Source: Patescibacteria group bacterium
GTDB lineage: Bacteria > Patescibacteriota > Patescibacteriia > Veblenbacterales > UBA10138
DNA length: 44,588 nucleotides
NCBI GenBank assembly: GCA_043823825.1
Contig: JBDRTU010000052.1
Coordinates: 1-44,588, forward strand
Direction of reading: 5' to 3'
In this document: positions 3,995 to 37,070 of the stretch, piece after piece
How positions within the stretch are numbered: position 1 is the first letter of the stretch
Layout: every line of letters begins with the position of its first letter
Position numbers and translations under genes: made by a program
Notes under the pieces: generated by a model
What the model saw: only the letters and a program-made list of their open reading frames with translations
What the model was told of the DNA's origin: nothing
Database searches by the model: none

Positions 3995-4321
3995 TTAATT
4001 TTTTAATTCTCCTTTAAACCATTTATAATAAGCGAGATTAACATTTGATATTTCTACCGTACCAATAAAGGGCACTTGGTCAGAATGTTTTGATTGTACC
4101 AATTTTTGTAACTTTTTTAAATGCTTAGGTAAAGTATCCATAACCAGCAAACAACCCTTGCCTCTTTCTATTTTTCCGGTTTTTGGTGGCCAAAAGAAAC
4201 GCGTCAGTAGGCGCGGAAAAATATTGTAACAAACCGTTAGTCTAGCTCTAAGCGAAATATCACCAATCCGCTTTGCCTCGGCAACAGAATTACAATTTAC
4301 TAACAGCCAAAGTAGTTTCAT
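3995..4321 (-). CDS. cutA: Divalent cation tolerance protein CutA-like
   Basis: EAKRIG...ARLTVCYNI, HSDQVPFI, YYKW; 108 aa. Confidence 0.75.
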   Translation of the reverse strand: MKLLWLLVNCNSVAEAKRIGDISLRARLTVCYNIFPRLLTRFFWPPKTGKIERGKGCLLVMDTLPKHLKKLQKLVQSKHSDQVPFIGTVEISNVNLAYYKWFKGELKN

Positions 4322-4944
4322 AAAGTCTTAATTAATTCAGGCAACTCTTTAAAGGATGAAATGCAGGCGTCGGCATTATCAAACTTTTTATGTGAGTAAA
4401 TTATTACTCTCATATCAGCGGCACGTGCTGTGACAATGTCATTTTCCACATCTCCTATATAAACACACTCATTAGGCCTTACTTCTAGTTTTCTAGCTGC
4501 CAATAAAAGTGGTTCGGGGTGCGGTTTGTGATTAACTGTATCTTGATAAGATACTGCTGCACCAAAATACTTTTTTAGTTCCTCTAAACTAGGGCCAACG
4601 AACATAGTCTCCGCTACCCGGCTAGTTACAATTCCTAATTTATATTTTTTTCTTAGAGCTTTTACTGCCTTAGCCGCGCCTATTGTCATGGTAGAGAAAC
4701 GAATGTAATATTGCCCCGCTAATCTTCTCCCCTCTTCCCACATTTTCATTATCTCCTGCTCATTAGTAGTTTTAGACAGAACTTTAATTGCATCGTATAA
4801 ATTGTAATGAAAAATCTGGCGATACTCTTCAGCCGTGGGCGGCTGGTAACCGTTCTTTTCCATCAAATCCTGAAAAAAATTCAAATTAGCTGGAAATGAA
4901 TCCATTACTACTCCATCAATATCAAAAATTACTGCTTTAATCAT
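4318..4944 (-). CDS. HAD-IA hydrolase (phosphoglycolate phosphatase-like)
   Basis: MIKAVIFDIDGV, KPHPEP, YIGDVENDI; start moved to the ATG at 4944. Confidence 0.9.
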   Translation of the reverse strand: MIKAVIFDIDGVVMDSFPANLNFFQDLMEKNGYQPPTAEEYRQIFHYNLYDAIKVLSKTTNEQEIMKMWEEGRRLAGQYYIRFSTMTIGAAKAVKALRKKYKLGIVTSRVAETMFVGPSLEELKKYFGAAVSYQDTVNHKPHPEPLLLAARKLEVRPNECVYIGDVENDIVTARAADMRVIIYSHKKFDNADACISSFKELPELIKTL

Positions 4945-4970
4945 AAATGTTAGTGGTACCCCGAAGGCCT

Positions 4971-4987
4971 GTCCGCCTCGGGCGGAC
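4971..4987. repeat. Short GC-rich palindrome GTCCGCC-NN-GGGCGGAC, copy 1
   Basis: Related copies at 34758-34774 and 40278-40294. Confidence 0.6.
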
Positions 4988-5023
4988 TTAGAAATCCGAG
5001 ATTCTATTTTACCCCACTCCACT

Positions 5024-5301
5024 TGCCCCCGAGAGGAATCGAACCTCTATTAGCGGCTCCCGCCTACGCTTAAGGCTTCGGTGGGCAAGTAGAAGTCCGC
5101 AGTTCCCCGCCTGCCATCACCTATGCCCTTGAGAGGAATCGAACCTCTATCAGCGGCTTAGAAGTCCGCGGTTCTATCCATTGAACTACAAGGGCACAGG
5201 GCATGGCGGGCAGATATCTATTATCCGCCTCCATATTTTAATATTACGGCGGATCCTCGCCGAAGCTTAAATAAATTAGCGGAGGCGGAAACTACGAGGG
5301 C
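5024..5301 (-). pseudogene. Outer tRNA-Arg(TCT) interrupted by three palindromic insertions
   Basis: Segments 5290-5301, 5215-5223, 5090-5105 and 5024-5058 join to a 72-nt tRNA that differs from the inner copy at 7 positions. Confidence 0.85.
5124..5195 (-). tRNA. tRNA-Arg(TCT), intact and nested in the interrupted copy
   Basis: GCCCTTGTAGTTCAATGGATAGAACCGCGGA-CTTCTAA-GCCGCTGATAGAGGTTCGATTCCTCTCAAGGGCA. Confidence 0.95.
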
Positions 5302-5418
5302 TAGCCGTAGTTAATTAACTAAACTCTACTACTTATCCCTATTTTAAGATAATTTGTCAACTATCGCCACACTTACAAACAAAATGGGTTAATGGCATAT
5401 AGAGCAGTAAATTGAAAA

Positions 5419-6720
5419 CTACCAAGGCAATATTAACCCATAAGTAGTTGGTGCGAGCAACAAAAACGAAATGACTACTATATAAAGATAGGCTGGCAGT
5501 AATCGTTTTTGCCAATAAGTGTTTCTAATACACCAATCTTTCACTGATGGCCAAATTAAAGGCACTAATAAATAACCAAATATCAACGCTGGAAAATAGT
5601 GATAAATAAAAAATACTCTATTAATAAAAAAGAAAGGTATATAACTTATAAAAAATGCCAGTAGTAATAGGGTCCGATTATCATCTCGCAATACACGATT
5701 AGTTAAAGAGAGAATGGACAAAAGTAACGCTACCACTAGAGCTATAATAACAGAAAACCAACCTACTGGATTACCCTGAACAATAATTGCACGGTCATTC
5801 TCAACTAATATTCCTAACTTTTTTTCACCAACCAGCCATTGTTGAGGTTGGCTGGAATTTGCATGTTCAGAATAATTACTGTTAGCTTTAAACATAGTTA
5901 CAAATAATGTTGGTAGATAACGCACAATACCTACCAAATCATTTCCCGGAGGATATTTCAGCCGTTCAGAAACAGTCTGAATTTTACCTAAACTAATCGG
6001 CGTCTTACTGTTAACTCCTCCGATAGAAGCAAAATAGATTACCCATATTGTTAGATGAATAAATAAAATAAATAACAATGCTAACGCAAATTCACGTAAT
6101 CGCTGTTGCCGCCATAACCACCAACCTAAAACTGCTATAAAACCCAAGGCGATCCATTTTACCGACAAAGCGCCGCCCAACAGCGCGGCTCCGCAGATGA
6201 ATAAGAGATATCTAATTTTTTTTGATCTTGCGCTCCCTCCTATTAAAAATAAAGCAAGGCCCCCGAAACCTAAGAAGAGTAACAAATTTTCTGGTAACAT
6301 TAATCTTGAATATACTACCAAAGAATTGTCCCAAATTACCAACCATGCAGCGATCACTGCCTGCCAAGTCGCCATTGAAAGAGCTCGTGCTATTAAATAA
6401 ACAGCTATCACTAATCCCGCTCCTAAAAATGCGTTCAATTGACGTGCAGTCTGATAAGGAAATTTATTAATGGTCTGGCTGGTATTCTCAATTTGTAAAG
6501 AAGGTTGATAAGATTTAACTGATACTGCATTTACTAATGAAGATAAGGGTGGATGCACTGTAAAGTAGGGTTGTTGGTGCAAGATATAAGTGGCAAAAGT
6601 TGCTTCTGTAGATTCATCAAATAAAGCTTGAGTAGGATATGATAATTTTGGTAATCGCAATAAAAGCGCCAGTAAAAAAAGACCGATTATGATTGTGTAA
6701 TCTTTTTTAGTCAACAACAT
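5419..6720 (-). CDS. Protein O-mannosyltransferase-like glycosyltransferase (PMT/GT39)
   Basis: Multi-TM; LFDE, VHPPL, SVKW, GNPVGW, RVFFIYHYFPAL. Confidence 0.85.
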   Translation of the reverse strand: MLLTKKDYTIIIGLFLLALLLRLPKLSYPTQALFDESTEATFATYILHQQPYFTVHPPLSSLVNAVSVKSYQPSLQIENTSQTINKFPYQTARQLNAFLGAGLVIAVYLIARALSMATWQAVIAAWLVIWDNSLVVYSRLMLPENLLLFLGFGGLALFLIGGSARSKKIRYLLFICGAALLGGALSVKWIALGFIAVLGWWLWRQQRLREFALALLFILFIHLTIWVIYFASIGGVNSKTPISLGKIQTVSERLKYPPGNDLVGIVRYLPTLFVTMFKANSNYSEHANSSQPQQWLVGEKKLGILVENDRAIIVQGNPVGWFSVIIALVVALLLSILSLTNRVLRDDNRTLLLLAFFISYIPFFFINRVFFIYHYFPALIFGYLLVPLIWPSVKDWCIRNTYWQKRLLPAYLYIVVISFLLLAPTTYGLILPW

Positions 6721-8881: not shown

Positions 8882-11107
8882 ATGTCAGAAGTAAAAAACT
8901 TCAGCCTGGAGGTGGCTGGTAAAAAGCTAACGATAGAGACTGGCAAGTTAGCTAATCAAGCGCATGGCAGTTGTACCGTACAATATGGTGATACGGAAGT
9001 TTTGGCTACAGTAGTACAAGCTCCAGAGCCACGTGAGGGAATTGATTATTTCCCTTTGCTTGTAGATTATGAGGAGCGCTTATACGCGGCTGGTAAAATT
9101 AAAGGTTCGCGTTTTATTAAACGTGAAGGGCGTCCTACTGACGAAGCAATCCTAACAGCGCGTATGATTGATCGTTCGATCAGACCTCTCTTTCGTGATA
9201 CTGAACGCAAAGACGTACAAGTGATTGTTACTGTTTTGTCAGTTGATCATGAAAATGACCCCGACATCCCTTCGCTCTTGGCTGCGTCCTTGGCGCTAGG
9301 AATTTCTGCCGTACCTTGGAATGGTCCGATTGCCGCTATTAGAGTTGGTCGTATTAATAATGAATGGGTGTTAAATCCTTCTTACGAAGCAAGATCTAAA
9401 AGTGATTTAGATCTAGTAATAACTGGTACCCCAACAGAAGTAGTAATGATTGAGGGGCAAGCTAAAGAAACTGATGAAAAAACTGTGAGTGAAGCAATTG
9501 AATTTGGTCACAAATATTTAAGTACGATGGCGCCCTTCCTACAAGAAATTATTAAAAAGGTTGGCACTACTAAAATAACAACTAACGAAGAGATTGATAC
9601 TGAAACTATGGCAAAGCTAAAACAAAAAGTTACCGCGGTGCTGGATCCTAAAATTAAGGATTTATTCCATAACACTACTCGCCAAGAATATCATCAGAAA
9701 ATTGCTAGCATCAAACAAGAATTAGATAAGGTCTTAAAGCAAGATAATAAAGTATCTAAAGAGGAACGGACGCAGGGCCTTAAATTCTTTGAAGAAACTT
9801 TAGATTCCGAAGCGCGACAACTAGTCCTAAATAAAAAAGTTAGGGTAGACGGGCGTAAACCTAATGAATTACGGCCCATAGAGGCGGCGGTTGGTATATT
9901 GCCTCGTACTCACGGCTCTGGTCTATTTCAACGTGGTGAAACACAAATATTATCAATAGTTACACTCGCCTCGCCTTCGGCTGAGCAAACATTAGATGGT
10001 ATGGAAGAAGAGGGTAAAAAACGTTATATGCACCATTATAATTTTCCCGGATTTTCAGTGGGAGAGGTAGCACCAGTTCGCTCGCCTGGCCGCCGAGAAA
10101 TTGGGCATGGGGCATTAGCAGAAAAAGCCTTACTACCAGTACTGCCTGATAAAGAACAATTTCCTTATACCATCCGAGTAGTTTCAGAAGTTTTATCCTC
10201 TAATGGTTCTTCATCGCAAGCATCAATTTGTGGATCCAGTTTGGCGCTGATGGACGCTGGTGTTCCTATTGCTCGTGCCGTAGCTGGAGTGGCAATGGGC
10301 TTGCTAACAGATCCTCAGGATAAATCACACTACACTATACTTACAGACATTCAAGGTATTGAAGACCACGCCGGTGATATGGATTTTAAAATCGCCGGTA
10401 CCAACAAAGGTATCACTGCTATCCAATTAGATATTAAACTAGGAGGTCTTTCCATAAAAATTCTGAATGAGGCAATTACCCAAGCCAAAGAAACGCGCTT
10501 AGAAATTTTAAAAACTATGACTCAAGCTATTGCCGAACCGCGAGCCGATCTTTCCCCTTATGCGCCGCGCATTACTTCTTTCCGTATTCCACCAGATAAA
10601 ATCCGCTCGGTTATTGGTCCGGGTGGTAAGGTAATTAATGAAATTATTGACGCTACTAATGTTCAGATTGATATTGAGGATGACGGCTTGGTAATGGTAA
10701 CAGCCGTCAACCCCGAAGCGGCGACTAAAGCGGTAGAATGGATTAAAAATCTTACTCGTGAAGTAGTAGTGGGTGAAGTGTTTCAGGGCAAAGTAACGCG
10801 TTTAATGAATTTTGGCGCTTTTGTGGAAGTATTACCCAAACAAGAAGGATTAGTTCATATCTCGGAGCTGGCTTGGCATAGAGTAGATCGGGTTGAAGAT
10901 GTAGTAAAGATTGGTGACATCATTCCAGTTAAAGTAATTGAAATTGATGAGCAAGGTAGAATCAATCTATCACATAAACAAACTTTACCACGTCCCCAAG
11001 GTTTAGAAGAATCTAATAACAATTTTGAGAGACCAGCTCGTAGACAAGACTTTCGCCGCAACAACTCTAGACCACCTAGATCTGGAGTCAATCGTTTCCA
11101 CCATTAG
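8882..11107 (+). CDS. pnp: Polyribonucleotide nucleotidyltransferase
   Basis: RRE(I)GHG, SNGSSS, GDMDFK, KH and S1 domains. Confidence 0.98.
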   Translation: MSEVKNFSLEVAGKKLTIETGKLANQAHGSCTVQYGDTEVLATVVQAPEPREGIDYFPLLVDYEERLYAAGKIKGSRFIKREGRPTDEAILTARMIDRSIRPLFRDTERKDVQVIVTVLSVDHENDPDIPSLLAASLALGISAVPWNGPIAAIRVGRINNEWVLNPSYEARSKSDLDLVITGTPTEVVMIEGQAKETDEKTVSEAIEFGHKYLSTMAPFLQEIIKKVGTTKITTNEEIDTETMAKLKQKVTAVLDPKIKDLFHNTTRQEYHQKIASIKQELDKVLKQDNKVSKEERTQGLKFFEETLDSEARQLVLNKKVRVDGRKPNELRPIEAAVGILPRTHGSGLFQRGETQILSIVTLASPSAEQTLDGMEEEGKKRYMHHYNFPGFSVGEVAPVRSPGRREIGHGALAEKALLPVLPDKEQFPYTIRVVSEVLSSNGSSSQASICGSSLALMDAGVPIARAVAGVAMGLLTDPQDKSHYTILTDIQGIEDHAGDMDFKIAGTNKGITAIQLDIKLGGLSIKILNEAITQAKETRLEILKTMTQAIAEPRADLSPYAPRITSFRIPPDKIRSVIGPGGKVINEIIDATNVQIDIEDDGLVMVTAVNPEAATKAVEWIKNLTREVVVGEVFQGKVTRLMNFGAFVEVLPKQEGLVHISELAWHRVDRVEDVVKIGDIIPVKVIEIDEQGRINLSHKQTLPRPQGLEESNNNFERPARRQDFRRNNSRPPRSGVNRFHH

Positions 11108-11198
11108 CTAAAACAGATTTTTATTTAACTTGATAGTTTGTAAATAGACTATTGAACACCATTATTCATAGGGCCGAAGTTCCAAAAAGATGATTAAC

Positions 11199-11207
11199 TG
11201 TGGATAA
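11199..11207 (-). promoter_or_regulatory. Perfect DnaA box
   Basis: TGTGGATAA is the reverse complement of TTATCCACA; one-mismatch copy at 11335-11343. Confidence 0.4.
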
Positions 11208-11291
11208 TTTGTCTAAAACTAATATAGTGAGCACATGCAGTGTTCAGCTACATACTTATTTTTTTGCTTTATTTAAGCCAAAAACAGTATA

Positions 11292-11320
11292 TTGACTAGA
11301 TTTCAAAAATATGATATATT
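11292..11320 (+). promoter_or_regulatory. Sigma70-type promoter
   Basis: TTGACT-17 bp-TATATT with extended TGn. Confidence 0.6.
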
Positions 11321-11326
11321 GTAATT

Positions 11327-11729
11327 GACTAAGATGTGGATATTTAAAAAGGATGAAATTTGCTAGTAGATAAAAGGGTGTGGGCTAAAAAATTTATTAA
11401 CCATTTGGCCCAAACCCCTTTCTCTACTGTTCTATTGTCAGTATGGTCTGACCCTCACTTAAGACCAACCTAACAGTAGAAACAAAAACAAAAAGGCGGG
11501 ATACAATATTTACTTGTGTTCCGACCATAGGAATGGTAGGGAACAACGCGTGATTAGTAGTTTAACAACTAGGTGAGGATTACGCCCCTAAGGTGTTTGA
11601 GGATACATTCTTTCCTAATTTTCCCTGAATCGGAAGATTAAGAAGGTAGCGCAAACGCCGTATAACGGGGCGATGCGCTCAATAATTCAATTTGCTTAAC
11701 ATAGCGGGGCGTTCATCGCCCCGCTTTTT
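11327..11729 (+). ncRNA. Candidate structured non-coding RNA of about 400 nt, family unknown
   Basis: Bounded by a promoter and a terminator, no sizeable ORF, consecutive GU-containing hairpins. Confidence 0.45.
11703..11729 (+). terminator. Intrinsic terminator
   Basis: AGCGGGGCG-TTCAT-CGCCCCGCT-TTTT. Confidence 0.85.
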
Positions 11730-11855
11730 GTTTATTAAAAATGTGTATTAACTGCCGCAAGGACAAAATTGTTTGACAGCCCAAACTATGCTATAATCGA
11801 GGCGTCCCTCTTTTTTAGAGTTTTATTTTAGGTTTTGGTTTTTATCAGAATATTT

Positions 11856-23324: not shown

Positions 23325-24440
23325 TTACTGCCTAATTGGCATAATTATGTAGCTGTAATCATCACCAGATGCTGGTTTTAATAATCCAGGATTATTAGTA
23401 TCAACAATCGCCAGTTGCACTTCCTTGCCAGAAATAGCATTTAACCCATCAATTAAATAACGGTAATTAAAAACAATTTCATTATTACTACCCGTAGCTT
23501 TAATTAATGTTAAAGTAGAACTATCTTCACCTAGTTGACTATTGGCTGAGGAAACTAATAGTTTTTTGGTTGATGGTTCTGTTTGCAATCTTACATCATT
23601 AATACCTGCTCGAGTAAATAAACTCGCGCTTTTTACTGCTTGGAGTAAAGAAGTGCGATCTACTAATAATTCACTATTAAATGTTTTAGGTATGATCTGT
23701 TGATAATCTGGAAACTGGGCAGTGATGATACGTGAGACTATTTTACTTTCACCTATTTGCCACATCACTTGATTGTCTCCTACTCGTATTTCCACTTCTT
23801 TAGTTTCTTCGTGAGTATTAAGAATACGAACTAATTGCTGTACTGTCCTTACTGGTATAATTAATTGCCCTGCCCCTAATTGCCCTTTACTAATCAAAAT
23901 TATTTTTTCAGCTAAGCGATAACTGTCGGTTGCGACTAGTGCTAATTTTTTATCATTAACCATATTAATCAATACCCCAGAGATCTCGGGGCGCGCTTCT
24001 TGGGGGTTAACCGCTATCAACACTTGATTCAAAGCTTCAGCTAAATCTTGACTATCTACCACCACATTACCTTTAGCTGCAACTTCAGGAATCACGGGAA
24101 AATCCTCAGCTGTTAATCCATGGATAACTGTTTGATGTCCAGCGCAACTAATTTTTAAATCTAAATTATCAAGCTCTAAATCAACACGGTCATTGGGCAA
24201 TAACGCCACTAATTCGGTAAAAAGTTTTCCTTGTATAGTAATAGACCCCTCAACACCAACCTTACCACGAACAATAGTTACAACACCTACTTCTAAATTA
24301 GTGGATGAGATAGTTAACGCACCGCCTTCAGTTTTTAATAAAACATTATTTAAAATAGGTAACGTGGTGTTTCGCCCAGTGACATAGCCAGTTATCAACA
24401 AGCCTTTATATAAATTTTCTTTAGTACATGATATTTTCAT
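23325..24440 (-). CDS. dnaN: DNA polymerase III beta clamp
   Basis: TLPILNNVL, ATDSYRL, FPDY, IMPIR; adjacent to dnaA. Confidence 0.97.
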   Translation of the reverse strand: MKISCTKENLYKGLLITGYVTGRNTTLPILNNVLLKTEGGALTISSTNLEVGVVTIVRGKVGVEGSITIQGKLFTELVALLPNDRVDLELDNLDLKISCAGHQTVIHGLTAEDFPVIPEVAAKGNVVVDSQDLAEALNQVLIAVNPQEARPEISGVLINMVNDKKLALVATDSYRLAEKIILISKGQLGAGQLIIPVRTVQQLVRILNTHEETKEVEIRVGDNQVMWQIGESKIVSRIITAQFPDYQQIIPKTFNSELLVDRTSLLQAVKSASLFTRAGINDVRLQTEPSTKKLLVSSANSQLGEDSSTLTLIKATGSNNEIVFNYRYLIDGLNAISGKEVQLAIVDTNNPGLLKPASGDDYSYIIMPIRQ

Positions 24441-24578
24441 AGTAGTAGATAAAGTGGAAAAAATTAATTAAATAAAGAAAAGGTTGTATTGGTTGATAAA
24501 ATAGTAATTTATACCTGTGATTAGTCTGCGTATAGTGTTGGGGTATAGTAGGGATAAGGTGGGTGTAATAAAAAATTT
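24441..24578. other. Candidate oriC segment (dnaA-dnaN intergenic region)
   Basis: AT-rich with degenerate DnaA-box-like 9-mers such as AGTGGAAAA; supported mainly by position. Confidence 0.45.
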
Positions 24579-25925
24579 CTAATTATTATAAAGTTGCTGG
24601 TGAATTAGGTGGATATCTTGTTGAATAGTACCATCATTATTTAAAGCTGCAGAAATTTTAATATAAGCATGCATAGCAGTGGTGTGGTCGCGATTACCTA
24701 ATTCTTGACCAATGGTTGGGTACGAGGCTTTAATTTCGTTTCTCATTAAATACATAGCTATTTGGCGTGGGGTTACTAACTGTTTTTTCCTACTTGCGCC
24801 CAATAAATCCTCTATCTTAACGTCATAATATCTAGATACCACGTTAATTATTTTTTTTGTGGTTAGGGCCTGACCTCGTTCGTGTTGGCTGTTGGTTTGT
24901 AAAATGCTTTTGACTGAGTCTAGGGTGGACGGCTGATTATTTAATTGATGATAGGCAATTATTTTATTTAAAGCACCCTCCAATTCCCTAACATTGTTTT
25001 GTATAGTGGTAGCTAAATAATTAATAATTTGTCCATTGAGAACGCAGTTTTTTTCTTTACATTTAGCTTCTAAAATTGCTGTTCTGGTTTCTAAATCCGG
25101 ACTTAAAATATCAGCCAGCATACCCCATTCAAAACGTGAAACTAAACGATGCTCCAGAGTAGGAATGGCTTTAGGTGGGCGGTCAGAGGTTATCACTATT
25201 TGTTTATTGGCTTGATGAAGATTATTAAAAGTATGAAAAAATTCTTCCTGCGTACCCTCTTTGCCAGCTAAGAATTGAACATCGTCGACTAATAAAGCAT
25301 CCACGCTACGATATCGGTTTTTAAATTTTTCCATAGTGCCCTTACTAATTGCTTCAATAAATTCATTTGTAAATTTTTCGCAGGTTATATACGATACTTT
25401 TTTATTGGGATCGCTTTTTACTATTTCATGGCCAATGGCTTGTAATAAGTGAGTTTTACCCAAACCTGCCCCACCATAAAGAAAAAGTGGATTGTAAGTT
25501 TGTCCGAGCGATTGAGTAACTGCTAGTGCTGCGGCACGTGCCAACTCATTGTTTTTACCAACAATAAAACTATCAAAAGTATAGTTAGGGCTCAAGCCAA
25601 TATTATTAACTGGTTGTTCTTGATTAAAAGTTGCTACAGAAGGTGCTGCTGAATTGTAATAATTTACACGTGCTTTATTAATATTAACTTGGTAGGCAAT
25701 TTGTTTAACAGATTGATTGGTGATATTGTTGAGGGCTTTTAAAATAAAGTCGTGGTATTTTTTTTCTAGCCAGGCTTTAGTAAAAGCATTGGGTACGGCT
25801 ATGACAATATGACCATCCTTACAAGAATCAATGTAAGTGTTTTTAAACCAAGTGGTGAAATTAGCTTTACTGATTAATAGCTCTAATTCACCAAGTGTTG
25901 ATTGCCACAATTGATCATTAGTCAT
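24579..25925 (-). CDS. dnaA: Chromosomal replication initiator
   Basis: YNPLFLYGGAGLGKTHL, DDVQF, QEEFFHTFN, RELEGAL, RDHTT. Confidence 0.99.
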   Translation of the reverse strand: MTNDQLWQSTLGELELLISKANFTTWFKNTYIDSCKDGHIVIAVPNAFTKAWLEKKYHDFILKALNNITNQSVKQIAYQVNINKARVNYYNSAAPSVATFNQEQPVNNIGLSPNYTFDSFIVGKNNELARAAALAVTQSLGQTYNPLFLYGGAGLGKTHLLQAIGHEIVKSDPNKKVSYITCEKFTNEFIEAISKGTMEKFKNRYRSVDALLVDDVQFLAGKEGTQEEFFHTFNNLHQANKQIVITSDRPPKAIPTLEHRLVSRFEWGMLADILSPDLETRTAILEAKCKEKNCVLNGQIINYLATTIQNNVRELEGALNKIIAYHQLNNQPSTLDSVKSILQTNSQHERGQALTTKKIINVVSRYYDVKIEDLLGASRKKQLVTPRQIAMYLMRNEIKASYPTIGQELGNRDHTTAMHAYIKISAALNNDGTIQQDIHLIHQQLYNN

Positions 25926-26091
25926 AAACTTAAGTAGTGTAATAAGTTATAGCATAAAATAGGCAAGTGGAAAACTAGTGGATGGTTTATTAAGTGTTTA
26001 TAACTTGTGAATTACATGGGGATACTATTATTTTTTTGACCAATTGCAAAGAGGTTGCTATAGTGAAAAGGCTTTTATTTTACAGATTGTT
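25926..26091. other. Candidate oriC segment / divergent dnaA-rpmH promoter region
   Basis: Degenerate boxes AGTGGAAAA 25966, TGTTTATAA 25995, TGTGAATTA 26006. Confidence 0.45.
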
Positions 26092-26229
26092 ATGCCAAAA
26101 AGAACATATCAACCTAAAAAACGACGACGTGCTCGCAAGCACGGTTTTCGCCATAGAATGAGTACTACTAGTGGTAGGCGAGTTTTAGCTCGAAGGCGTC
26201 GACGGGGACGTAAATTAATAAGTCAGTAA
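26092..26229 (+). CDS. rpmH: 50S ribosomal protein L34
   Basis: [23 protein letters not shown]; ATG at 26092. Confidence 0.97.
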
Positions 26230-26232
26230 TGA

Positions 26233-26574
26233 ATGTTAACTACGACGCACAAATTAAAAAGTGCGGTTGATTTTAATCGCCTTTATCGTTATGGGAAGCG
26301 AGCTGTTTTTCCAGTTTTTACATTGCGTTGGCTATCAATTAAAGGGCAGCAGTTAACTAGATTTGGAGTAGTGGCTTCAATTAAACAGCTAGGTAAGGCT
26401 AATGTGCGTAATCGAGCTAGGAGACGCTTGTGGTCGTCGCTTAATAAAACGCTTTTGTTATTTCCAGCTAAAAATTATCTAATTGCCTTTGTTCTTAAAA
26501 AAGAGATTATTAAAGTTTCCTGGCCATGCCTGATTAATATAGTTGAGCAAGCTGCTAAAAAGGTTCGTCCTTAA
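26233..26574 (+). CDS. rnpA: RNase P protein component
   Basis: RFGVVAS..GKANVRNRARRRL; conserved synteny. Confidence 0.92.
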   Translation: MLTTTHKLKSAVDFNRLYRYGKRAVFPVFTLRWLSIKGQQLTRFGVVASIKQLGKANVRNRARRRLWSSLNKTLLLFPAKNYLIAFVLKKEIIKVSWPCLINIVEQAAKKVRP

Positions 26575-26576
26575 TT

Positions 26577-26846
26577 ATGGCAACTTCTTTTTTTGCCAGT
26601 ATTCGACTACAAGTAAGGATGCTGATTCTAAGGTTTGTTAGGCTGTATCAAAAAATCTTATCACCCGATCATGGAGTGGGGCGCACTTTGGCTCCCTATC
26701 GCGGTTGTCGCTTTCATCCCTCTTGTTCTGAATATGCTTATCAGGCGATTGATAAGTATGGGGTGATTAAAGGTGGTATAATGGCTTTAAGGAGATTATT
26801 TCGTTGTCACCCTTGGCAGGCTGGCGGTCATGATCCAGTTCCCTAA
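26577..26846 (+). CDS. yidD: Membrane protein insertion efficiency factor
   Basis: YQKILSP, CRFHPSCSEY, RCHPW, GHDPVP. Confidence 0.95.
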   Translation: MATSFFASIRLQVRMLILRFVRLYQKILSPDHGVGRTLAPYRGCRFHPSCSEYAYQAIDKYGVIKGGIMALRRLFRCHPWQAGGHDPVP

Positions 26847-26863
26847 TTAAATACTTTATTATT

Positions 26864-27598
26864 ATGAAGCAATTTTTTACAACTATTTTCTATCAACCCT
26901 TATTTAATTTATTGGTTTGGCTTTATAATTTAGTGGGCGGCAATATTGCGCTGGCTATTATTTTGTTAACTGTGATTATTAAATTAGTTCTATACCCTTT
27001 TTCTCGCCAGTCGCTCAAATCTCAAAAAGCTTTGCAGGAAATTCAACCTAAAATTAATGAGTTAAAAATAAAATATAAGGACGATAAAGAAAAAATGACC
27101 AAAGAAATGATGCAGCTTTATCGTCAGGAAAAAGTAAACCCCTTCTCGTCTTGTCTACCGCTGTTAATCCAGCTGCCGTTCTTAATAGCAGTTTTCCAAG
27201 TTTTTCGAACTGGTTTAAACTCTGACAGTTTTGAATTACTATATTCTTTTGTGGCTAGCCCAGGGCACCTCGATGCTTTTATGTTTTCCTTTGATTTAAG
27301 TCAGCCGGTTTGGTTGTTTGGAGTTTTGGCTGGTATTGCTCAGTACTGGCAAACTAAAATGTTAATGAGTAAAAAACCAGCGGTTAAAAGCGATGGCTCT
27401 AAAGATGAAGGTATGGCTGCTACTATGAATAAACAAATGCTGTATTTTATGCCAGTCTTAACTGTGGTTTTTGGCTTTAGTCTGCCGGGTGGTTTGATGC
27501 TTTATTGGTTTATGAATACTATTTTAACCGTTGCTCAACAGTATTTAATGTTTGGCAAAAAGAAAGTTATCCCCGAACCAAATGTTACAACTCAGTGA
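26864..27598 (+). CDS. yidC: Membrane protein insertase YidC/Oxa1
   Basis: IQPKINELK, VNPFSSCLPLLIQLP, LYW. Confidence 0.95.
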   Translation: MKQFFTTIFYQPLFNLLVWLYNLVGGNIALAIILLTVIIKLVLYPFSRQSLKSQKALQEIQPKINELKIKYKDDKEKMTKEMMQLYRQEKVNPFSSCLPLLIQLPFLIAVFQVFRTGLNSDSFELLYSFVASPGHLDAFMFSFDLSQPVWLFGVLAGIAQYWQTKMLMSKKPAVKSDGSKDEGMAATMNKQMLYFMPVLTVVFGFSLPGGLMLYWFMNTILTVAQQYLMFGKKKVIPEPNVTTQ

Positions 27599-31697: not shown

Positions 31698-33023
31698 TTA
31701 ATTTACCTTATTCATCAACATTGGAATAGTTAGATGCTTTCGCACTGATTCACCTTTTATCCTATTTAATTTCCTTATTGGCATATCACCTCTAGCTTGT
31801 ACATGTTGTGGAGTTTTTTGAGCACTTAAACTTGCGGCTGAATATAAACAGTGTTTACCAAATTTGGCTGACATTTTATCTACAGCTTCATATAATCTTT
31901 TTAATTTTTCTATTCTGACAATCGGTTCAAATAATGTTCGCTGTAAACCTTCTAAAGGTATTAAGTTTGCCAACACTACGCCAGTAGCACGGTAAAAATT
32001 ACCGTGTTTAAATAATTGGCTAAATAAGCGATGTATAATGGTCATCATGTCTTGAGGAAAATTAGAGGCACGGTTTAGTTTGGCTTCAAGGCCGACAGTG
32101 CGGTAATTTTGTAGGCGTAAAATAATTATTAGATCTTGTGCCACTAAGTTGTGGCGACGCGCTTTAATACAAGCGTTTTCTAAATTTTTTACTAATTGCG
32201 CATAAACATAAGCCGGGCTATTTGATGGGGGTGTAAAAGTTTTAGTTTTGCTAATAGAAATATAATCGGTTTTTTCTTCTGGCGCGACATCATATACTGA
32301 ATGACCATTAAGCTCTTGCCACATCTCGTAGTGTGGTTTGGTAAAATGTTGTTTTATAAAATTTTCGTTTTTATTAACAAAATCCAGCGCGTTTTTTATA
32401 CCAAGTTTCAAACAATAAGCAGCTGTGCGTGGTCCTATGCCCCAAATTTTTTCAATAGGTGTTATTTTTAAATATTTATGTATTTCTCGCCCCGCAATAG
32501 CAGTAAAGCCTGATGGTTTTTTATATTTGGAGGCGATTTTGCAAAGCACTTTAGATAAACTAAGCCCAACTGAAACTGTAATTCCTAGTTCAGATTCTAT
32601 AGTTGCTTTTATTTTTTGAGCAATGATGGAGTAGGAACAGTGGAATGGCCGTTGTAGACCAGTTAAATCAGCAAAACCTTCATCAATTGAATATTCTTCC
32701 ACTTGCGAAGTAAATCGGCGCATAATAGAAAACAGGCGTTTGGAAAATAAACTGTAAGTTTCATAATCAGAAGGTAAAATAATAGCATTGGGACAAAGTT
32801 TTTTTACTTCCCATAGTGGTACGCCCCGACCAACCCCCTTAGCCTTAGCTTCATAACTAGCAGCTGCTACTATTCCCCTTTCTTTGCCAGTAATTACCGG
32901 GCGGCCGCGGTATTCTGGGTGTAAAGCTTGTTCGCAAGATGCAAAAAAAGCATCGCCGTCGACATGCAGAATTGCTCGCGGCCAGGATGAAATAGTTAGG
33001 GGTTTACTGGTTGACAAATTCAT
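31698..33023 (-). CDS. dinB: Y-family DNA polymerase (Pol IV / UmuC-like)
   Basis: HVDGDAFFASCE, ASYEAK, YSIDEG, IWGIG, UmuC-like C-terminal tail. Confidence 0.93.
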   Translation of the reverse strand: MNLSTSKPLTISSWPRAILHVDGDAFFASCEQALHPEYRGRPVITGKERGIVAAASYEAKAKGVGRGVPLWEVKKLCPNAIILPSDYETYSLFSKRLFSIMRRFTSQVEEYSIDEGFADLTGLQRPFHCSYSIIAQKIKATIESELGITVSVGLSLSKVLCKIASKYKKPSGFTAIAGREIHKYLKITPIEKIWGIGPRTAAYCLKLGIKNALDFVNKNENFIKQHFTKPHYEMWQELNGHSVYDVAPEEKTDYISISKTKTFTPPSNSPAYVYAQLVKNLENACIKARRHNLVAQDLIIILRLQNYRTVGLEAKLNRASNFPQDMMTIIHRLFSQLFKHGNFYRATGVVLANLIPLEGLQRTLFEPIVRIEKLKRLYEAVDKMSAKFGKHCLYSAASLSAQKTPQHVQARGDMPIRKLNRIKGESVRKHLTIPMLMNKVN

Positions 33024-33119
33024 TTATTTAATATATAGTAAATTGTTATTGTTTTTTAAGCTGTACTTTATCAAATTACCCCCTAAATAAAGGGGAATCA
33101 TATAACAACATAAGGAGAA

Positions 33120-33836
33120 ATGCTCATGAGCAAGAAGCATGAGATAACTCTGCCGGCCGAGCAGGCCAGCGAACTTATGGCCCCGATAGTATCGGTGGTC
33201 ATGAGTACACAACCCACAGATGCGCAGTACTGGATAAGCCGTAAACGCAAGTTTGAGGCCGAACTGCGCAACCTCATCTGTCGCGGTACCGTTCCCTTCG
33301 CCGATCTCATTGCCGAATGGGAAAAGTTTTATCTGGAGGTATTTGGACTGGATAAGAATTTTTCCAGTCTCCGTATTCCGAAACCGCAGGAAGGTTTCAG
33401 CCGTCCTATCATTGAGGCGGGTGAAATTACCAATAGCCGGGTTTTTGCCAAGTGTAAGGAATTATTTCCAGCCAGGAAGTACGCCGACAATCTGGACACT
33501 GTTACTAATATCACTCCGTGGACGCCTGGTGATCGCGCTTATTGGATCCGCGATCGGGTGGAGGCTGATGAAGAGCTGAAGAATATTTCGACCAACAATT
33601 TGGCTAACCAGAACATTGTCGGCATCACCTTGAAGGGTCGGCTTCTGTTTGAGGTCAAATATTTTAAGGAAACTGGCCAGCATCTGGATATCCAGAACAT
33701 TACACTCTGTTCCGGTTCCCGCGATGCCGCTGGTGATGTGCCGAGCGTGCGCTGGAACGACGACGAGCTGCACGTCGGTTGGACGAGTCCTGGCATTCAG
33801 GACGACCGCCTGCGTTCTCGTGCAGTAGTTTCGTAA
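33120..33836 (+). CDS. DGR target protein 1 (C-terminal variable region, probable C-type lectin fold)
   Basis: RBS TAAGGAG; last 40 codons match TR; paralogue of target 2 (WIRDRVEAD, YFKE.G.HLDIQ.ITLCSGSR). Confidence 0.93.
   Translation: MLMSKKHEITLPAEQASELMAPIVSVVMSTQPTDAQYWISRKRKFEAELRNLICRGTVPFADLIAEWEKFYLEVFGLDKNFSSLRIPKPQEGFSRPIIEAGEITNSRVFAKCKELFPARKYADNLDTVTNITPWTPGDRAYWIRDRVEADEELKNISTNNLANQNIVGITLKGRLLFEVKYFKETGQHLDIQNITLCSGSRDAAGDVPSVRWNDDELHVGWTSPGIQDDRLRSRAVVS
33714..33833 (+). repeat. DGR variable repeat VR1
   Basis: 120 nt, 17 mismatches to TR, all at TR adenines (11 G, 4 C, 2 T). Confidence 0.97.
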
Positions 33837-33908
33837 CCCTTGTAACTTTTTACTTTTTCCCTTAACTCACTGATTTATTTTATTCACTTTTCAAGAAAGG
33901 AACAGCTC

Positions 33909-34640
33909 ATGGAAAAGTATGAGACAGTCCTGGTGTCAGCTTCGGTTGACCAAGTTAAAGATGTGGTCGCTACACTGTGCCAGGCCATCCCCAAAGGGAT
34001 GACGTCAAGTGATGCCCAGTCCATCAGCGGGAAGAAAGGCAAATTTATTGCCGATATCAGGCAGGTGTTTGCTAAGTACTCAACCGCTTCGGTGCTCGCA
34101 AGCGTCCTGTTGGAATGGCAGGATTTGTGGAAAGAGTTTGGTGTCTCTCTGGACTTATCAGAGCTCGTGATTCCGGAATGCCAGGAGGGCTTTGATCGCC
34201 TGTTGGTGATACCGCAAGGCATCGGTGCCGAGCGGGTATTCCAGAGGTGTAAATCCACTTTCGGTGCCTGGAAGTATACCGACTGTGGTCTGGATGAAGT
34301 AGTGCCGACCAATGACCGCACGAACATCAAGACCTACGAGGTTTGGATCCGCGATCGGGTGGAGGCTGATAAAGAATTGAAAAATATGTCAGCCAACACT
34401 TTGGCTCAAGCCAAGATTCTGGGGGTTACCCTACTTGAACGGCTCGTGTATGAGTGGAAGTATTTCAAGGAGTCGGGTAAGCACCTGGACATTCAGAAAA
34501 TCACGCTGTGTTCCGGTTCCCGCGATGCCGATGGTAATGTGCCGTGCGTGTACTGGCTCGGCGGCAAGCTGCGCGTCCATTGGGCGCCTCCTGGCTATCA
34601 GTTCGACAGCCTGCGTTCTCGTGCAGCAGTTTCTCTTTAA
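33909..34640 (+). CDS. DGR target protein 2
   Basis: RBS AAAGGA; C-terminal VR2; paralogue of target 1. Confidence 0.93.
   Translation: MEKYETVLVSASVDQVKDVVATLCQAIPKGMTSSDAQSISGKKGKFIADIRQVFAKYSTASVLASVLLEWQDLWKEFGVSLDLSELVIPECQEGFDRLLVIPQGIGAERVFQRCKSTFGAWKYTDCGLDEVVPTNDRTNIKTYEVWIRDRVEADKELKNMSANTLAQAKILGVTLLERLVYEWKYFKESGKHLDIQKITLCSGSRDADGNVPCVYWLGGKLRVHWAPPGYQFDSLRSRAAVSL
34515..34633 (+). repeat. DGR variable repeat VR2
   Basis: 119 nt, 20 mismatches to TR, all at TR adenines (8 G, 6 C, 6 T). Confidence 0.97.
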
Positions 34641-34693
34641 ACTTAATTCTTTTTTCCTTTTTCAAAATCACGAAGAAAGGAGAAGAATTTATC

Positions 34694-34730
34694 CCCCAAG
34701 TTGTGCGGAGTACAACTTGGGGATTTTTTT
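34694..34730 (+). terminator. Hairpin with GGA loop and T-run downstream of VR2 (terminator and/or DGR homing stem-loop)
   Basis: CCCCAAGTTGTGC-GGA-GTACAACTTGGGG-ATTTTTTT. Confidence 0.75.
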
Positions 34731-34935
34731 ATATAATTAATATGGCTACTACAATCGGTCCGCCTTGGGTGGATAGCGGTTTGCCAACATAACGAAACTG
34801 CTTACTTTGTTCTAGAGAATATTTCTATAATAATTTTATAGGATGCTTCTAAACACAGCCCGCCGACGGCGGGATAACTCAAGTAACTTTGTAAAAGGTT
34901 GCTGGCGAATATGGACGGGGCAAGGTAATAAAACG

Positions 34936-35055
34936 GGTTCCCGCAATGCCGATGGTAATGTGCCGAACGTGAACTGGAACGACGACAAGCTGAACGTCAA
35001 TTGGACGAATCCTGACAATCAGAACGACAACCTGCGTTCTCGTGCAGAAGTTTCG
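34936..35055 (+). ncRNA. DGR template repeat (TR)
   Basis: 120 nt, 34 adenines, 11 AAY codons in the target frame; identical to both VRs at non-A positions over the aligned length. Confidence 0.97.
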
Positions 35056-35056
35056 G

Positions 35057-35091
35057 AAAAACACCTGGTCTTAATTAGGCTTGGTGTTTTT
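35057..35091. terminator. Hairpin between TR and the 3' end of avd (bidirectional terminator or DGR spacer structure)
   Basis: AAAAACACC...GGTGTTTTT. Confidence 0.6.
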
Positions 35092-35478
35092 ATTTACTAT
35101 TATTAAGGTACTTTATCCAACCATTAGTCATTTTAGAAAGATTTTGTAGGTCGGTTTCCATGTCCAAATAGGTTTTACTTTCTACAATGTGTAAATTGTT
35201 ACTTAGACGAATTAATCTTTTTAAAATTTCTAATTTTATTCGCAGTGTTTTAAGCGGGGCATTTTTTTGGCTTCCAGATTCAAATGATGCAGTAATACAT
35301 AATTCTATAGTTTCTAGACAGATATTTTCAATTTTTAAGTATATTCCATAATGGTCGCGCTTCGTCATTTTTGGTCCCAACTGGTAAACTGTTTGGTAGA
35401 AAGTTGTTAGTTTATGCACCAAAGGCACGTCAAAAGTGTCGGGGGGGGGGGGGGCGATACTGGAAAAGTTTTGGTCAT
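35090..35478 (-). CDS. avd: Avd-like accessory four-helix-bundle protein; ATG at 35478 out of frame at C14 (currently open only from GTG 35428)
   Basis: DVPLVHKLTTFY, KRDHYGIYLKIEN, LEILKRLIRL, GWIKYL; lies between TR and RT. Confidence 0.85.
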
Positions 35479-36483
35479 AATATTTTTGAAAAAATAATTA
35501 ATTTAGAAAATTTGTTTTTAGCTTGGCGAGAGTTTAGGCGCGGTAAACGAAGTAAATTAGATGTACAGAAGTTTGAATTTAAGTTAGAAGACAATTTATT
35601 TACTATTCATGATCAGTTGGCCAGTGGGATTTATGTAAATAACCCCTATGTTTCTTTTTATATTACCGATCCGAAATTGCGGCATATTCATAAAGCTAGT
35701 GTTAGGGATAGAGTAATAAATCAGGCGGTATTTCGTGTGTTATATCCTATTTTTGATAAAGTTTTTGCATATGATTCGTATTCTTGTCGGGATAATAAGG
35801 GGTTACACAAAGCAGTTGATAGATTAGAGTTATTTTTAAGGCGCGTTAGTCGAAATTATCAAGAGCCAGTTTGGGTGCTTAAATGCGATGTTAAGAAATT
35901 TTTTGATTCTGTTGATCAGGAGCGATTATTTGGCTTTATTTGTAAAAGATTATTTGACAGACGAGCGTTGGATTTGGTTGAGAGAATAATTAGTAGTTTT
36001 TCTGTTAGTGCTGGTAAGGGGTTGCCGCTAGGAAACGTTACCAGCCAGTTGTTCGCCAACATTTATTTGAATGAACTGGACCAGTTTATCAAACACCAGT
36101 TAAGGGTAAAATATTATTTGCGGTATTGTGACGATTTTATTATTTTAGATAATGGTAAAAAATATTTATCTGGATTAATTGATAAGATTAACGAGTTTTT
36201 AAAGAATAATTTAGAGCTGGAATTACATCCAAGAAAAATTATCATTAGAAAATACCGGCAAGGTATAGATTATTTGGGTTATGTTTGTTTGCCACATTAT
36301 CGGGTGCCGCGCACCAAAACTAAACGGCGGATATTAAGGGTATTGGTGGGGAAAAGTTATTTAGTTAAACAGGGGCGTTTTAGTCAAACGATTTTTTATA
36401 GCTCTCTCCAATCTTATTTTGGAGTTTTAAAACATTGTCGAGGGTTTAAGGTTAAGCAGCAGATTTTATCAGTAATTAAATAG
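35414..36483 (+). CDS. DGR reverse transcriptase; ATG at 35414 out of frame at G14 (currently open only from non-ATG starts such as TTG 35371/35404)
   Basis: RDRV, KCDVKKFFDSV, GLPLGNVTSQLFAN, YCDD, IDYLGY; no in-frame Met anywhere in the ORF. Confidence 0.95.
35441..35454. repeat. G14 homopolymer inside the avd/RT overlap
   Basis: 14 consecutive G in an AT-rich genome. Confidence 0.95.
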
Positions 36484-36485
36484 CA

Positions 36486-37070
36486 TTATTTATATTTTCT
36501 AATAACCGCGGTTACTACGCCGGCGATTTTTAGTTCTTCTTTGGCTGTGACTATATGAAATCTTTTATTAGCCGGCACCAACACCACTTGTCCGCCGCGT
36601 TTTTCAAAATATTTTATAGTCCATTCCCTATCAACTTCAGCTACAACAATGTCGCCATGTCTTGGTTCACGGCCGCGCTCTAAAATCACCATATCTCCGG
36701 GTTGAATACCAGCATCAATCATAGAATCACCCGTTACTTTTAGCATAAAACTAGCTTCTTTATTTCTTATTAACCAATCATCAAGCGACAGAGTATCTAC
36801 CATTTCTTCTTCAGCCGGGCTGGGGAAACCAGCTTGAATAGTACCGAGTAGTTTTAACGGCAATAGTCGTTTCCCAGGTAGTAGCTTACCTAAATAATCT
36901 TTTTTCGCCCAACCAAAAGAAAACCATTTTTGGGCCAAACGCTGAGCCGCAAACTTGGATTTGAATTTACAAAAATTTGCTATCTCAGTATAACTAGGCA
37001 TGCGCTGGTTTTGCCCATAAAATTTTTGTAGCTTTTCTAAATATAGATTGTTATTAGGTGGTCGTCCCAT
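36486..37070 (-). CDS. lexA: LexA/UmuD family S24 autopeptidase with N-terminal HTH
   Basis: MPSYTEIA, IQAGFPSPA (Ala-Gly cleavage site), VTGDSMIDAGI, TIKYF. Confidence 0.9.
   Translation of the reverse strand: MGRPPNNNLYLEKLQKFYGQNQRMPSYTEIANFCKFKSKFAAQRLAQKWFSFGWAKKDYLGKLLPGKRLLPLKLLGTIQAGFPSPAEEEMVDTLSLDDWLIRNKEASFMLKVTGDSMIDAGIQPGDMVILERGREPRHGDIVVAEVDREWTIKYFEKRGGQVVLVPANKRFHIVTAKEELKIAGVVTAVIRKYK

Follow-up and report, generated by a model that had tools for sequence, protein, structure and literature searches.

The stretch of DNA analysed here, which we call the window, is contig JBDRTU010000052.1 in its full length of 44,588 nucleotides (contig C52 in our numbering), and belongs to the genome of a Patescibacteria group bacterium (G000, 889,506 bp in 66 contigs, with an estimated completeness of 97%). 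Between positions 33024 and 36485 it holds a 3.46-kb cassette with two paralogous target genes, a template repeat (TR), the accessory gene avd, and a gene for a reverse transcriptase (RT), which together we interpret as a diversity-generating retroelement (DGR) whose variable repeats, VR1 and VR2, lie in the C-terminal parts of the two targets (Table 1). That this is a true DGR, and that it has written both of its VRs, we hold with a probability of about 0.93. The original prediction, made from the DNA letters, had likewise called a complete two-target DGR, and the call is supported by an RT whose nearest solved relative is Brt, by the presence of Avd, by an adenine-only pattern of TR/VR differences on two C-terminal VRs, and by a lectin-type fold of the target, the last with moderate scores. 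Absent from that prediction were the minus-strand avd (35090-35428), the run of 14 G (G14), and the status of TTG 35371 as the sole in-frame canonical start of the RT.

Table 1. Features of the DGR cassette and its borders, in window positions; the last row refers to loci of relatives.
Feature	Position	Strand	Basis and remarks
Y-family (IMS) DNA polymerase gene, left cassette border	31698-33023	-	Pfam IMS 2.6e-46; synteny
Promoter-like site TTGACA-17-TATAGT, upstream of target 1	33011-33039	+	11/12 consensus matches; consensus match only
Target gene 1, 238 aa; N-terminal part helical, C-terminal domain C-type-lectin/FGE-like (moderate)	33120-33836	+	Open reading frame (ORF); AlphaFold model
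VR1, last 40 codons of target 1	33714-33833	+	17/17 mismatches at TR adenines; codon phase 0
Target gene 2, 243 aa; 44% aa identity to its paralogue, target 1 (tblastn)	33909-34640	+	ORF
VR2, close to the C-terminal end of target 2	34515-34633	+	20/20 mismatches at TR adenines
Terminator-like hairpin and T-run after target 2	34694-34722	+	13-pair stem
Likely TR leader, with weak promoter-like site 34728-34755 and GC hairpin 34859-34873	34728-34935	+	Inferred
Template repeat (TR)	34936-35055	+	Repeat search; alignment
Strong hairpin between A-run and T-run, separating TR from convergent avd	35057-35091		Fold prediction
avd (accessory variability determinant), 112 aa, opposite TR and RT; start GTG 35428	35090-35428	-	Pfam PF22296
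Reverse transcriptase, core from 35476-35479; assembled frame back to TTG 35371	35371-36483	+	RVT_1 3.5e-24
G14/C14 homopolymer, between avd start and conserved RT core, within the RT open frame	35441-35454		Sequence
S24 peptidase (LexA/UmuD-like) gene, right cassette border	36486-37070	-	Pfam Peptidase_S24 9.7e-29; NCBIfam; synteny
Tetranucleotide repeats in relatives	L045:7104-7139, L057:7103-7126, L075:7102-7133, L077:7092-7135, L078:7025-7060

The repeats, the genes and the target fold

Aligned without gaps, TR 34936-35055 and VR1 differ at 17 positions, and TR 34936-35054 and VR2 (119 nt) at 20, and every one of these 37 differences falls on a TR adenine. The changes from TR to VR1 are A>G (11), A>C (4) and A>T (2), and those to VR2 are A>G (8), A>T (6) and A>C (6); neither alignment contains an indel, and neither VR reading frame a stop. 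These figures reproduce exactly those that the original prediction had read off the letters, including the 34 adenines and 11 AAY codons of the TR, and mismatches at other bases, many of which would have pointed away from a DGR, number zero in the computed alignment. In particular, 32 of the 34 adenines of the 120-nt TR stand at codon positions 1-2. Under a null model of random positions, the probability that all 37 differences fall on A is 5.4e-21 (hypergeometric P of 1.2e-11 for VR1 and 5.7e-14 for VR2), and the same three-copy family was recovered independently by a repeat search. The search for remote targets that had been proposed at the outset was carried out with the window TR over the whole 889,506-bp genome, by BLAST and by a scan with adenines masked, and gave no additional VR.

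The homology between the copies begins at 34935/34936 and ends at 35055 for VR1 and at 35054 for VR2, where the following base is changed from G to T. A GC-rich segment, 35031-35047, is common to the TR and both VRs, and beyond the last mutated adenine the homology extends for just 6-7 nt before the flanks diverge from 35055/35056. Since this adenine, 35048, which comes after the GC-rich segment, is mutated in both VRs at 7 nt before the end of homology, the 3' recognition element would have to be either very short or located in the non-homologous flank. A small hairpin (CTGCG..TGCAG) is present in the TR and in both VRs; directly 3' of VR1 there is no inverted repeat, and the terminator hairpin of target 2 lies 60 nt past VR2. 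Judging by its sequence, the strong hairpin adjoining the TR (35057-35091) resembles a terminator that acts in both directions, and the TR RNA probably has its 3' end there; hairpins occur in most of the 25 relatives inspected from 60 that were folded.

The RT translation carries the motifs LGNVTSQ and YCDD, as had been noted in the original prediction. Its top match among solved RTs is 8ub7_A, with 138 bits, a chain identified as Brt from Bordetella phage BPP-1 (328/328 residues, 765 bits), while the RTs of retrons and group II introns score at most 83 bits; by these scores, the RT does not side with these latter groups. RT and Brt are 30% identical over 288 aa (BLASTP, E 7e-45), with LGNVTSQLFANIY of the former aligned with IGSLTSQLFANVY of the latter. 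One could still ask whether ordinary paralogy accounts for the repeats and whether the RT is of group II intron, retron or defence type, so that this would not be a DGR, as the best-scoring NCBIfam models for the RT are those of a group II RT/maturase (150 bits) and of Drt3a (88 bits). However, these scores are far under the respective cutoffs of 300 and 200, the group II, Drt and retron models of NCBIfam all remaining well under theirs, whereas the best solved match is Brt, the adenine-only pattern has a P of about 5e-21, and an Avd is present, so that we regard this explanation as extremely improbable. The Avd itself matches the Pfam family PF22296 (bAvd) with an E of 1e-11 and 45.7 bits, over a cutoff of 40; against the Avd of BPP-1 it reaches an E of only 0.07 by BLASTP, and it has no match among PDB sequences.

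The target proteins are harder to place by sequence. Target 1 has no hit to any Pfam or NCBIfam family, the 27 members of its family give merely scattered Pfam hits with E above 0.01, and neither the single protein nor the profile matches a PDB sequence. An AlphaFold model built with the 27-sequence alignment has a predicted local distance difference test (pLDDT) score of 91.7 and a predicted template-modelling (pTM) score of 0.77. In a structure search independent of Foldseek (VIA wide), residues 85-238 of this model match best to TvpA of Treponema denticola (2y3c_A, Z 7.4, root-mean-square deviation 3.3 A, 127 residues aligned), followed by proteins of the FGE type (1y4j_B, Z 6.5), Mtd (1yu0_A, Z 5.6), TaqVP (Z 5.1) and many C-type lectin domains. 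On the strength of the model, we assign the C-terminal domain to the C-type-lectin/FGE fold with moderate confidence, and we do so because the list of matches is consistent, rather than on the basis of any single Z score. Two other candidates were considered and rejected, namely sequence homology to Mtd (hhalign probability 0.3%) and a relationship to DUF5701, which is a weak structural neighbour (TM 0.53), the remaining neighbours in the Atlas being clusters of hypothetical proteins. The target proteins have no hydrophobic segment, the top hydropathy over 19 residues being 1.1.

As for the remaining features of the cassette, its targets and TR have a G+C content of 51-52%, avd and the RT gene one of 31-33%, and the window as a whole one of 38.7%. 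The first hexamer of the promoter-like site upstream of target 1 (33011-33039) is at the same time antisense to the first codons of the adjoining polymerase gene, and at the other end the S24 stop codon lies 2 nt from that of the RT. Rfam finds nothing within the DGR, its total for the window being five tRNAs.

Relatives, known systems and activity

Relatives of the RT were collected by a scan of genome contigs, which gave 405, and the best 80 of these were retained (48-62% identity, nearly all from metagenome-assembled genomes of Patescibacteria). Directly upstream of the RT and on the opposite strand, an avd homologue is found in 54/80; in one further locus (L052) avd is on the same strand and further off, and 25/80 have no avd match. 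At least one TR/VR pair with at least 80% of its mismatches at TR adenines is present in 61/80 relatives, with the layout of the window, and four of these 61 also have two targets (L038, L042, L066 and L032, the last with two separate TRs). In fact, L032 carries two DGRs within 13 kb (4421-6122 and 9620-11779), with 15/15 and 16/16 mismatches at A.

This layout has been described before. In the parts of Wu et al. 2018 (PMC5758913) available to us, architecture B3, TR-(avd)-RT with avd reversed, makes up 90% of the candidate phyla radiation (CPR) set, and the available parts of Roux et al. 2021 (PMC8144416) report on clade 2, a group of DGRs that is restricted to Patescibacteria and whose targets are without recognisable domains; both agree with the statement in the original prediction that DGRs are common in CPR. 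The order and strands of the genes in the window (targets, TR, avd on the minus strand and RT on the plus strand) match B3, and its host group and domain-less targets are likewise those of the CPR B3/clade 2 DGRs. The element is thus a further member of an already described CPR type, with two targets, and does not differ from it in kind.

With the DGR of phage BPP-1 the element shares the adenine-specific TR-to-VR differences, the C-terminal VR, a gene of the Avd family and a lectin-type target fold, as well as an RT with 30% identity to Brt, the (I/L)G..TSQLFAN segment included. However, the BPP-1 DGR is phage-borne, whereas the one in the window is chromosomal in a CPR genome and has two targets. 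What is more, avd, TR and brt of BPP-1 all lie on one strand, while here avd stands between TR and RT and is encoded by the other strand; the TR in the window is directly adjoined by a terminator-like hairpin, while that of BPP-1 is followed by a spacer running into the RT gene; the 5.2-kb locus of BPP-1 has no run of 8 G, while here a G14 precedes the RT core; and the targets have no sequence-level similarity to Mtd. Among TvpA, TaqVP and Mtd, which it resembles in having its VR on the C-terminal strands, the target has its best structural match in TvpA. Yet it is just 9% identical to TvpA in sequence, has no Pfam FGE-sulfatase or DUF1566 hit and no evident lipoprotein or signal sequence, and its N-terminal part is a different helical bundle.

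The window is not the only place in this genome with DGR parts. A second complete DGR lies on contig C36 (2178-6091). Its target has 680 aa, its VR (4068-4201) and TR (4565-4698) differ only at A (16/16 mismatches), its avd is encoded by the opposite strand, and its RT shares 44% identity with that of the window. A third cassette, on contig C35 (1-1750), has two target-like genes, a TR at 1375-1472 and avd on the minus strand, with no adjacent RT; here, 5/23 and 4/19 mismatches are not at A, and this cassette may be served in trans or decaying. A further diverged paralogue of the target C-terminus, cut by the contig end, is found on contig C63 (5683-5853).

How would the element in the window work? 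Following the model of the Bordetella phage, the TR would give rise to a short transcript with its end at the hairpin 35057-35091, and a complex of RT and Avd would copy this RNA into cDNA, misincorporating opposite adenines. The cDNA would then replace VR1 or VR2, recoding up to 20 codons of what would be the binding surface of the lectin fold, with a potential diversity of about 9e18 proteins per target.

As to when this happened, the two targets share 73% identity in the 172 nt that immediately precede the VRs, but within the VRs they agree at 85/85 of the TR non-A positions, and it is this contrast that leads us to conclude that both VRs were overwritten from the window TR after the paralogues had diverged. 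The original prediction had claimed recent activity on both targets, which stands if recent is taken relative to the divergence of the paralogues (73% as against 85/85), but not on the time-scale of sampling, where a second sequencing run has the same VR1. Public sequencing runs were compared as assembled contigs only, and the contigs of one independent run, X2, do not cover VR2, the TR or avd, while runs X3 and X4 gave relatives only.

That said, several observations weigh against the DGR reading set out above. The X2 contig is identical to the window over 33718-33888, which includes VR1 from 33718 on, the likely source run assembles unbroken through both VRs, and the evidence for diversification comes from assembled contigs only. 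In the RT gene, the conserved ATG at 35414 is 2 nt out of the RT frame, which leaves TTG 35371 as the one canonical start in frame, and by eye no Shine-Dalgarno-like motif is seen at this TTG. As far as the assembled letters tell, the RT may therefore not be expressed, or only poorly so, in the majority that was sequenced. Moreover, an IMS-type 34-bp initiation of mutagenic homing (IMH) element like that of Bordetella is not evident, the NCBIfam Avd model NF033474 scores 49.8 bits, under its cutoff of 80, Foldseek gives no match in the PDB at E <=0.001, and the fold matches listed above are middling, with all Z scores below 8, a level that may reflect a common arrangement.

Could the DGR then be real but silent or decaying, its VRs being relics of past homing and its RT not made, as the G-run puts the conserved ATG out of frame? 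Such an account would fit with the register of ATG 35414, 2 nt off with TTG 35371 alone in frame, and with the VR1 shared between runs and the contig of the source run that passes unbroken through both VRs. However, there are 0 non-A differences at 85+85 positions, as against 5/23 and 4/19 in the RT-less cassette on contig C35, the ORFs of the RT, of Avd and of the two targets are all intact, and relatives with an equal frame offset keep clean, A-only VRs (15/15 in L018 and 16/17 in L022). On balance, we consider a silent or decaying element unlikely.

The homopolymer between avd and the reverse transcriptase core

The G14 run deserves separate treatment. Homology to other RTs starts at residue 36-37, that is at 35476-35479, and the run lies in the part of the open frame that precedes this point. 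Counted over the whole of G000, G/C runs number 1981 at a length of 4 nt, 420 at 5, 54 at 6, 8 at 7, 0 at 8, 1 at 9 and 1 at 14, and the only two of at least 8 nt, the G14 of the window and a G9 on contig C36 (5098-5106), both stand at the starts of DGR RTs. A (GA)7 flanks the G9, and no further simple repeat was found in the genome.

The run is also widespread among the relatives. For 75 of the 80 there was enough upstream sequence for a survey (the other 5 were too short and were dropped), and 42/75 have a run of at least 5 G at the avd/RT junction. Runs of at least 6 G are present in 42 rows of a set made up of the window and 74 loci, with lengths of 10 nt (17 rows), 9 (15), 11 (4), 8 (2), 7 (2), 14 (1) and 6 (1). 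At the same spot, three loci have (GT)n instead (L027, L071 and L076, including a (GT)12), and one has a pentanucleotide repeat (L051). Over all loci, the 130-nt stretches upstream of the RT cores, which come to about 10 kb, contain 41 G/C runs of at least 8 nt, as compared with 4 in the other 832 kb or so. In a quickly built RT tree with 79 rows (the window, C36, Brt and 76 of the 80 loci, 4 with cut RTs being omitted), which carries SH-aLRT (Shimodaira-Hasegawa-like approximate likelihood-ratio test) support only, its careful search being unfinished, 36/40 run-bearing rows fall into one clade of 44, whose 4 run-less rows have interrupted runs. The possibility that the run is an artefact of assembly was rejected, as it recurs in 42/75 relatives from many assemblies and in both DGRs of the genome. 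In a G-run-less subclade of RTs we noted tetranucleotide repeats in 6-11 copies, about 1.0-1.1 kb after the start of the RT core and at or just past the 3' end of the RT (Table 1), and in L043 a (GA)11 about 0.58 kb after the core start.

Differences in run length between otherwise near-identical sequences were sought by scanning metagenomes with the junction motif, which gave 52 contigs, 12 of them DGRs of the window type, with four near-identical sets. In one set, L121 (9 G) and L138 (10 G) align over 1050 nt with 2 single-nucleotide polymorphisms (SNPs) and one G as the sole indel, both records being of low coverage, so that an error is possible; in another, L119 (8 G) and L140 (9 G) differ by 1 SNP in about 1675 nt and, again, by one G as the sole indel. 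Within the other two sets (L131/L132/L133 and L100/L016) the run length is unchanged. The same kind of scan with the window's own flanks, aimed at polymorphism of the tract within the strain, returned 0 contigs. The contigs of run X1 break exactly at the G-run, and contigs L041 and L070 start there. Stretches of 25-50 C on the strand where G is expected (L041:1-50, and the loose end of X1 at 35455) are probable assembler artefacts and were not used as evidence; such poly-C starts mark the tract as a break point of assembly.

What could such a tract be doing at this place? We think that slippage at the tract could gate the RT, and possibly Avd as well; this proposal comes from patterns in the sequences, and we hold it tentatively, at somewhat under even odds. 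According to it, avd and the RT gene, which are divergent, would overlap head to head across a pure G/C homopolymer throughout a large clade of CPR DGRs, that of the window included, such that translation of the RT from a conserved upstream ATG would have to cross the tract, and in some loci that of an ATG-started Avd as well. Slippage by one nucleotide, be it in replication, transcription or translation, would then switch or throttle the diversification machinery, which would make the tract a contingency switch on a targeted mutator. If true, this would give rise to stable-looking dominant VR alleles alongside a clean, A-only signature.

The main alternative that we weigh against this gives the G-run a fixed role without coding or switching, for example as a mimic of a Shine-Dalgarno sequence, as a spacer in a promoter or as a structured RNA, and has the RT start at a non-canonical codon after the run. 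G-runs could pair with the anti-Shine-Dalgarno sequence, and the run length is narrow, with 32/42 runs being 9 or 10 nt long. In addition, the frame offset of the upstream ATG relative to the RT in the 28 relatives with an intact run is 0 in 7, 1 in 16 and 2 in 5 (it is 2 in the window), which is close to random, and the single-G differences between contigs may be homopolymer errors in low-coverage assemblies. On the other hand, although the RT frame is open through the run in 38/42 run-bearing rows, an in-frame ATG, GTG or TTG follows the run in just 3/42, as compared with 21/42 in which one precedes it, and the frame of the upstream ATG is free of stops up to the run in 29/29 loci, the other two frames being so in 17/29 and 15/29. 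What is more, all four relatives with decayed runs (L008, L024, L031 and L036) have the upstream ATG in frame, three of them (L008, L024 and L036) with Gly-Gly remnants at the site of the tract, and a (GT)12 or a pentanucleotide repeat takes the same spot in other relatives. Taken together, a fixed element strikes us as plausible but rather doubtful.

Returning to the proposed slippage gate, there are loci where the tract is read through on both sides. For instance, in L131, L119 and C36, where the frames agree, the RT and an ATG-started, N-terminally extended Avd cross the tract as Gly and Pro, respectively, and in C36, with its G9, both are in frame with their upstream ATGs. The conserved upstream ATG is itself antisense to a His codon of the Avd N-terminus. 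Equal offsets on the RT and Avd sides were considered as support for a dual switch and rejected, since they follow arithmetically from two antisense His codons that are in phase.

Poly-G/C contingency loci, i.e. phase variation by simple sequence repeats, are described, in the portions of that literature available to us, for Neisseria, Campylobacter and Bordetella. The DGR tract is like them in consisting of 8-14 nt of uninterrupted G/C close to an ORF's 5' end, with apparent length differences of one unit between near-identical sequences and with states in and out of frame among the relatives; it differs in lying in the head-to-head overlap of divergent retroelement genes in a CPR host and in that it would gate a mutator instead of a surface antigen. 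The main text of Wu et al. 2018 (PMC5758913), supplements aside, makes no mention of a homopolymer between avd and RT or of its slippage (the word homopolymer occurs 0 times), and word searches found the tract unmentioned in a 2024 preprint on Bacteroides DGRs (10.1101/2024.11.15.621889) and in a 2022 review of domesticated retroelements (PMC8867640) too. Among the papers listed by literature searches, none links DGRs to phase variation, contingency or poly-G slippage. As far as these searches reach, the G-run between avd and the RT core is new.

Insertion site and meaning of the element

The cassette lies between the Y-family polymerase gene and the S24 gene (31698-33023 and 36486-37070, both on the minus strand), and the history of this site can be read from cassette-less relatives. 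Any match to the polymerase was found in 6 of the 31 genomes searched, G000 included, and close orthologues are present in G004 (83% identity) and G003 (77%). In both of these the S24 gene stands directly upstream of the polymerase gene, with spacers of 241 and 11 nt, respectively, and with the same WecG-family neighbour, but with no DGR. In the window, the insertion begins right after the S24 stop codon, and a remnant of the ancestral spacer is left beside the start of the polymerase gene. Judging from this sequence comparison, the cassette was inserted into the spacer of an otherwise conserved pair of S24-peptidase and Y-family-polymerase genes, and the cassette-less relatives, with their flanking S24 and polymerase genes, fix its boundaries within a few bases.

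The pairing of DGR with S24 and IMS genes recurs in L081, whose RT is on a different branch of the tree and whose DGR is likewise found between the two; with two cases, we cannot exclude chance. L091, L092 and L081 are the loci cited for an S24/polymerase pairing. As avd and the S24 gene are on the same strand, read-through from the latter could reach the former. Finally, dnaN, dnaA and a gene of the yidC family (23325-27598) are located about 6-10 kb from the DGR, which is why we place the cassette in the core chromosome, near the likely origin of replication.

Taken by itself, the element is one more CPR DGR, which adds a clean two-target case and a dated insertion site, and the cassette-less relatives show that such DGRs move as 3.5-kb cassettes. 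How cells restrain or time DGR mutagenesis is an open question, however, and the conserved homopolymer offers a testable answer to it. Should the run length indeed gate the RT, the on and off states of DGRs would be readable from metagenomic reads across hundreds of CPR populations.

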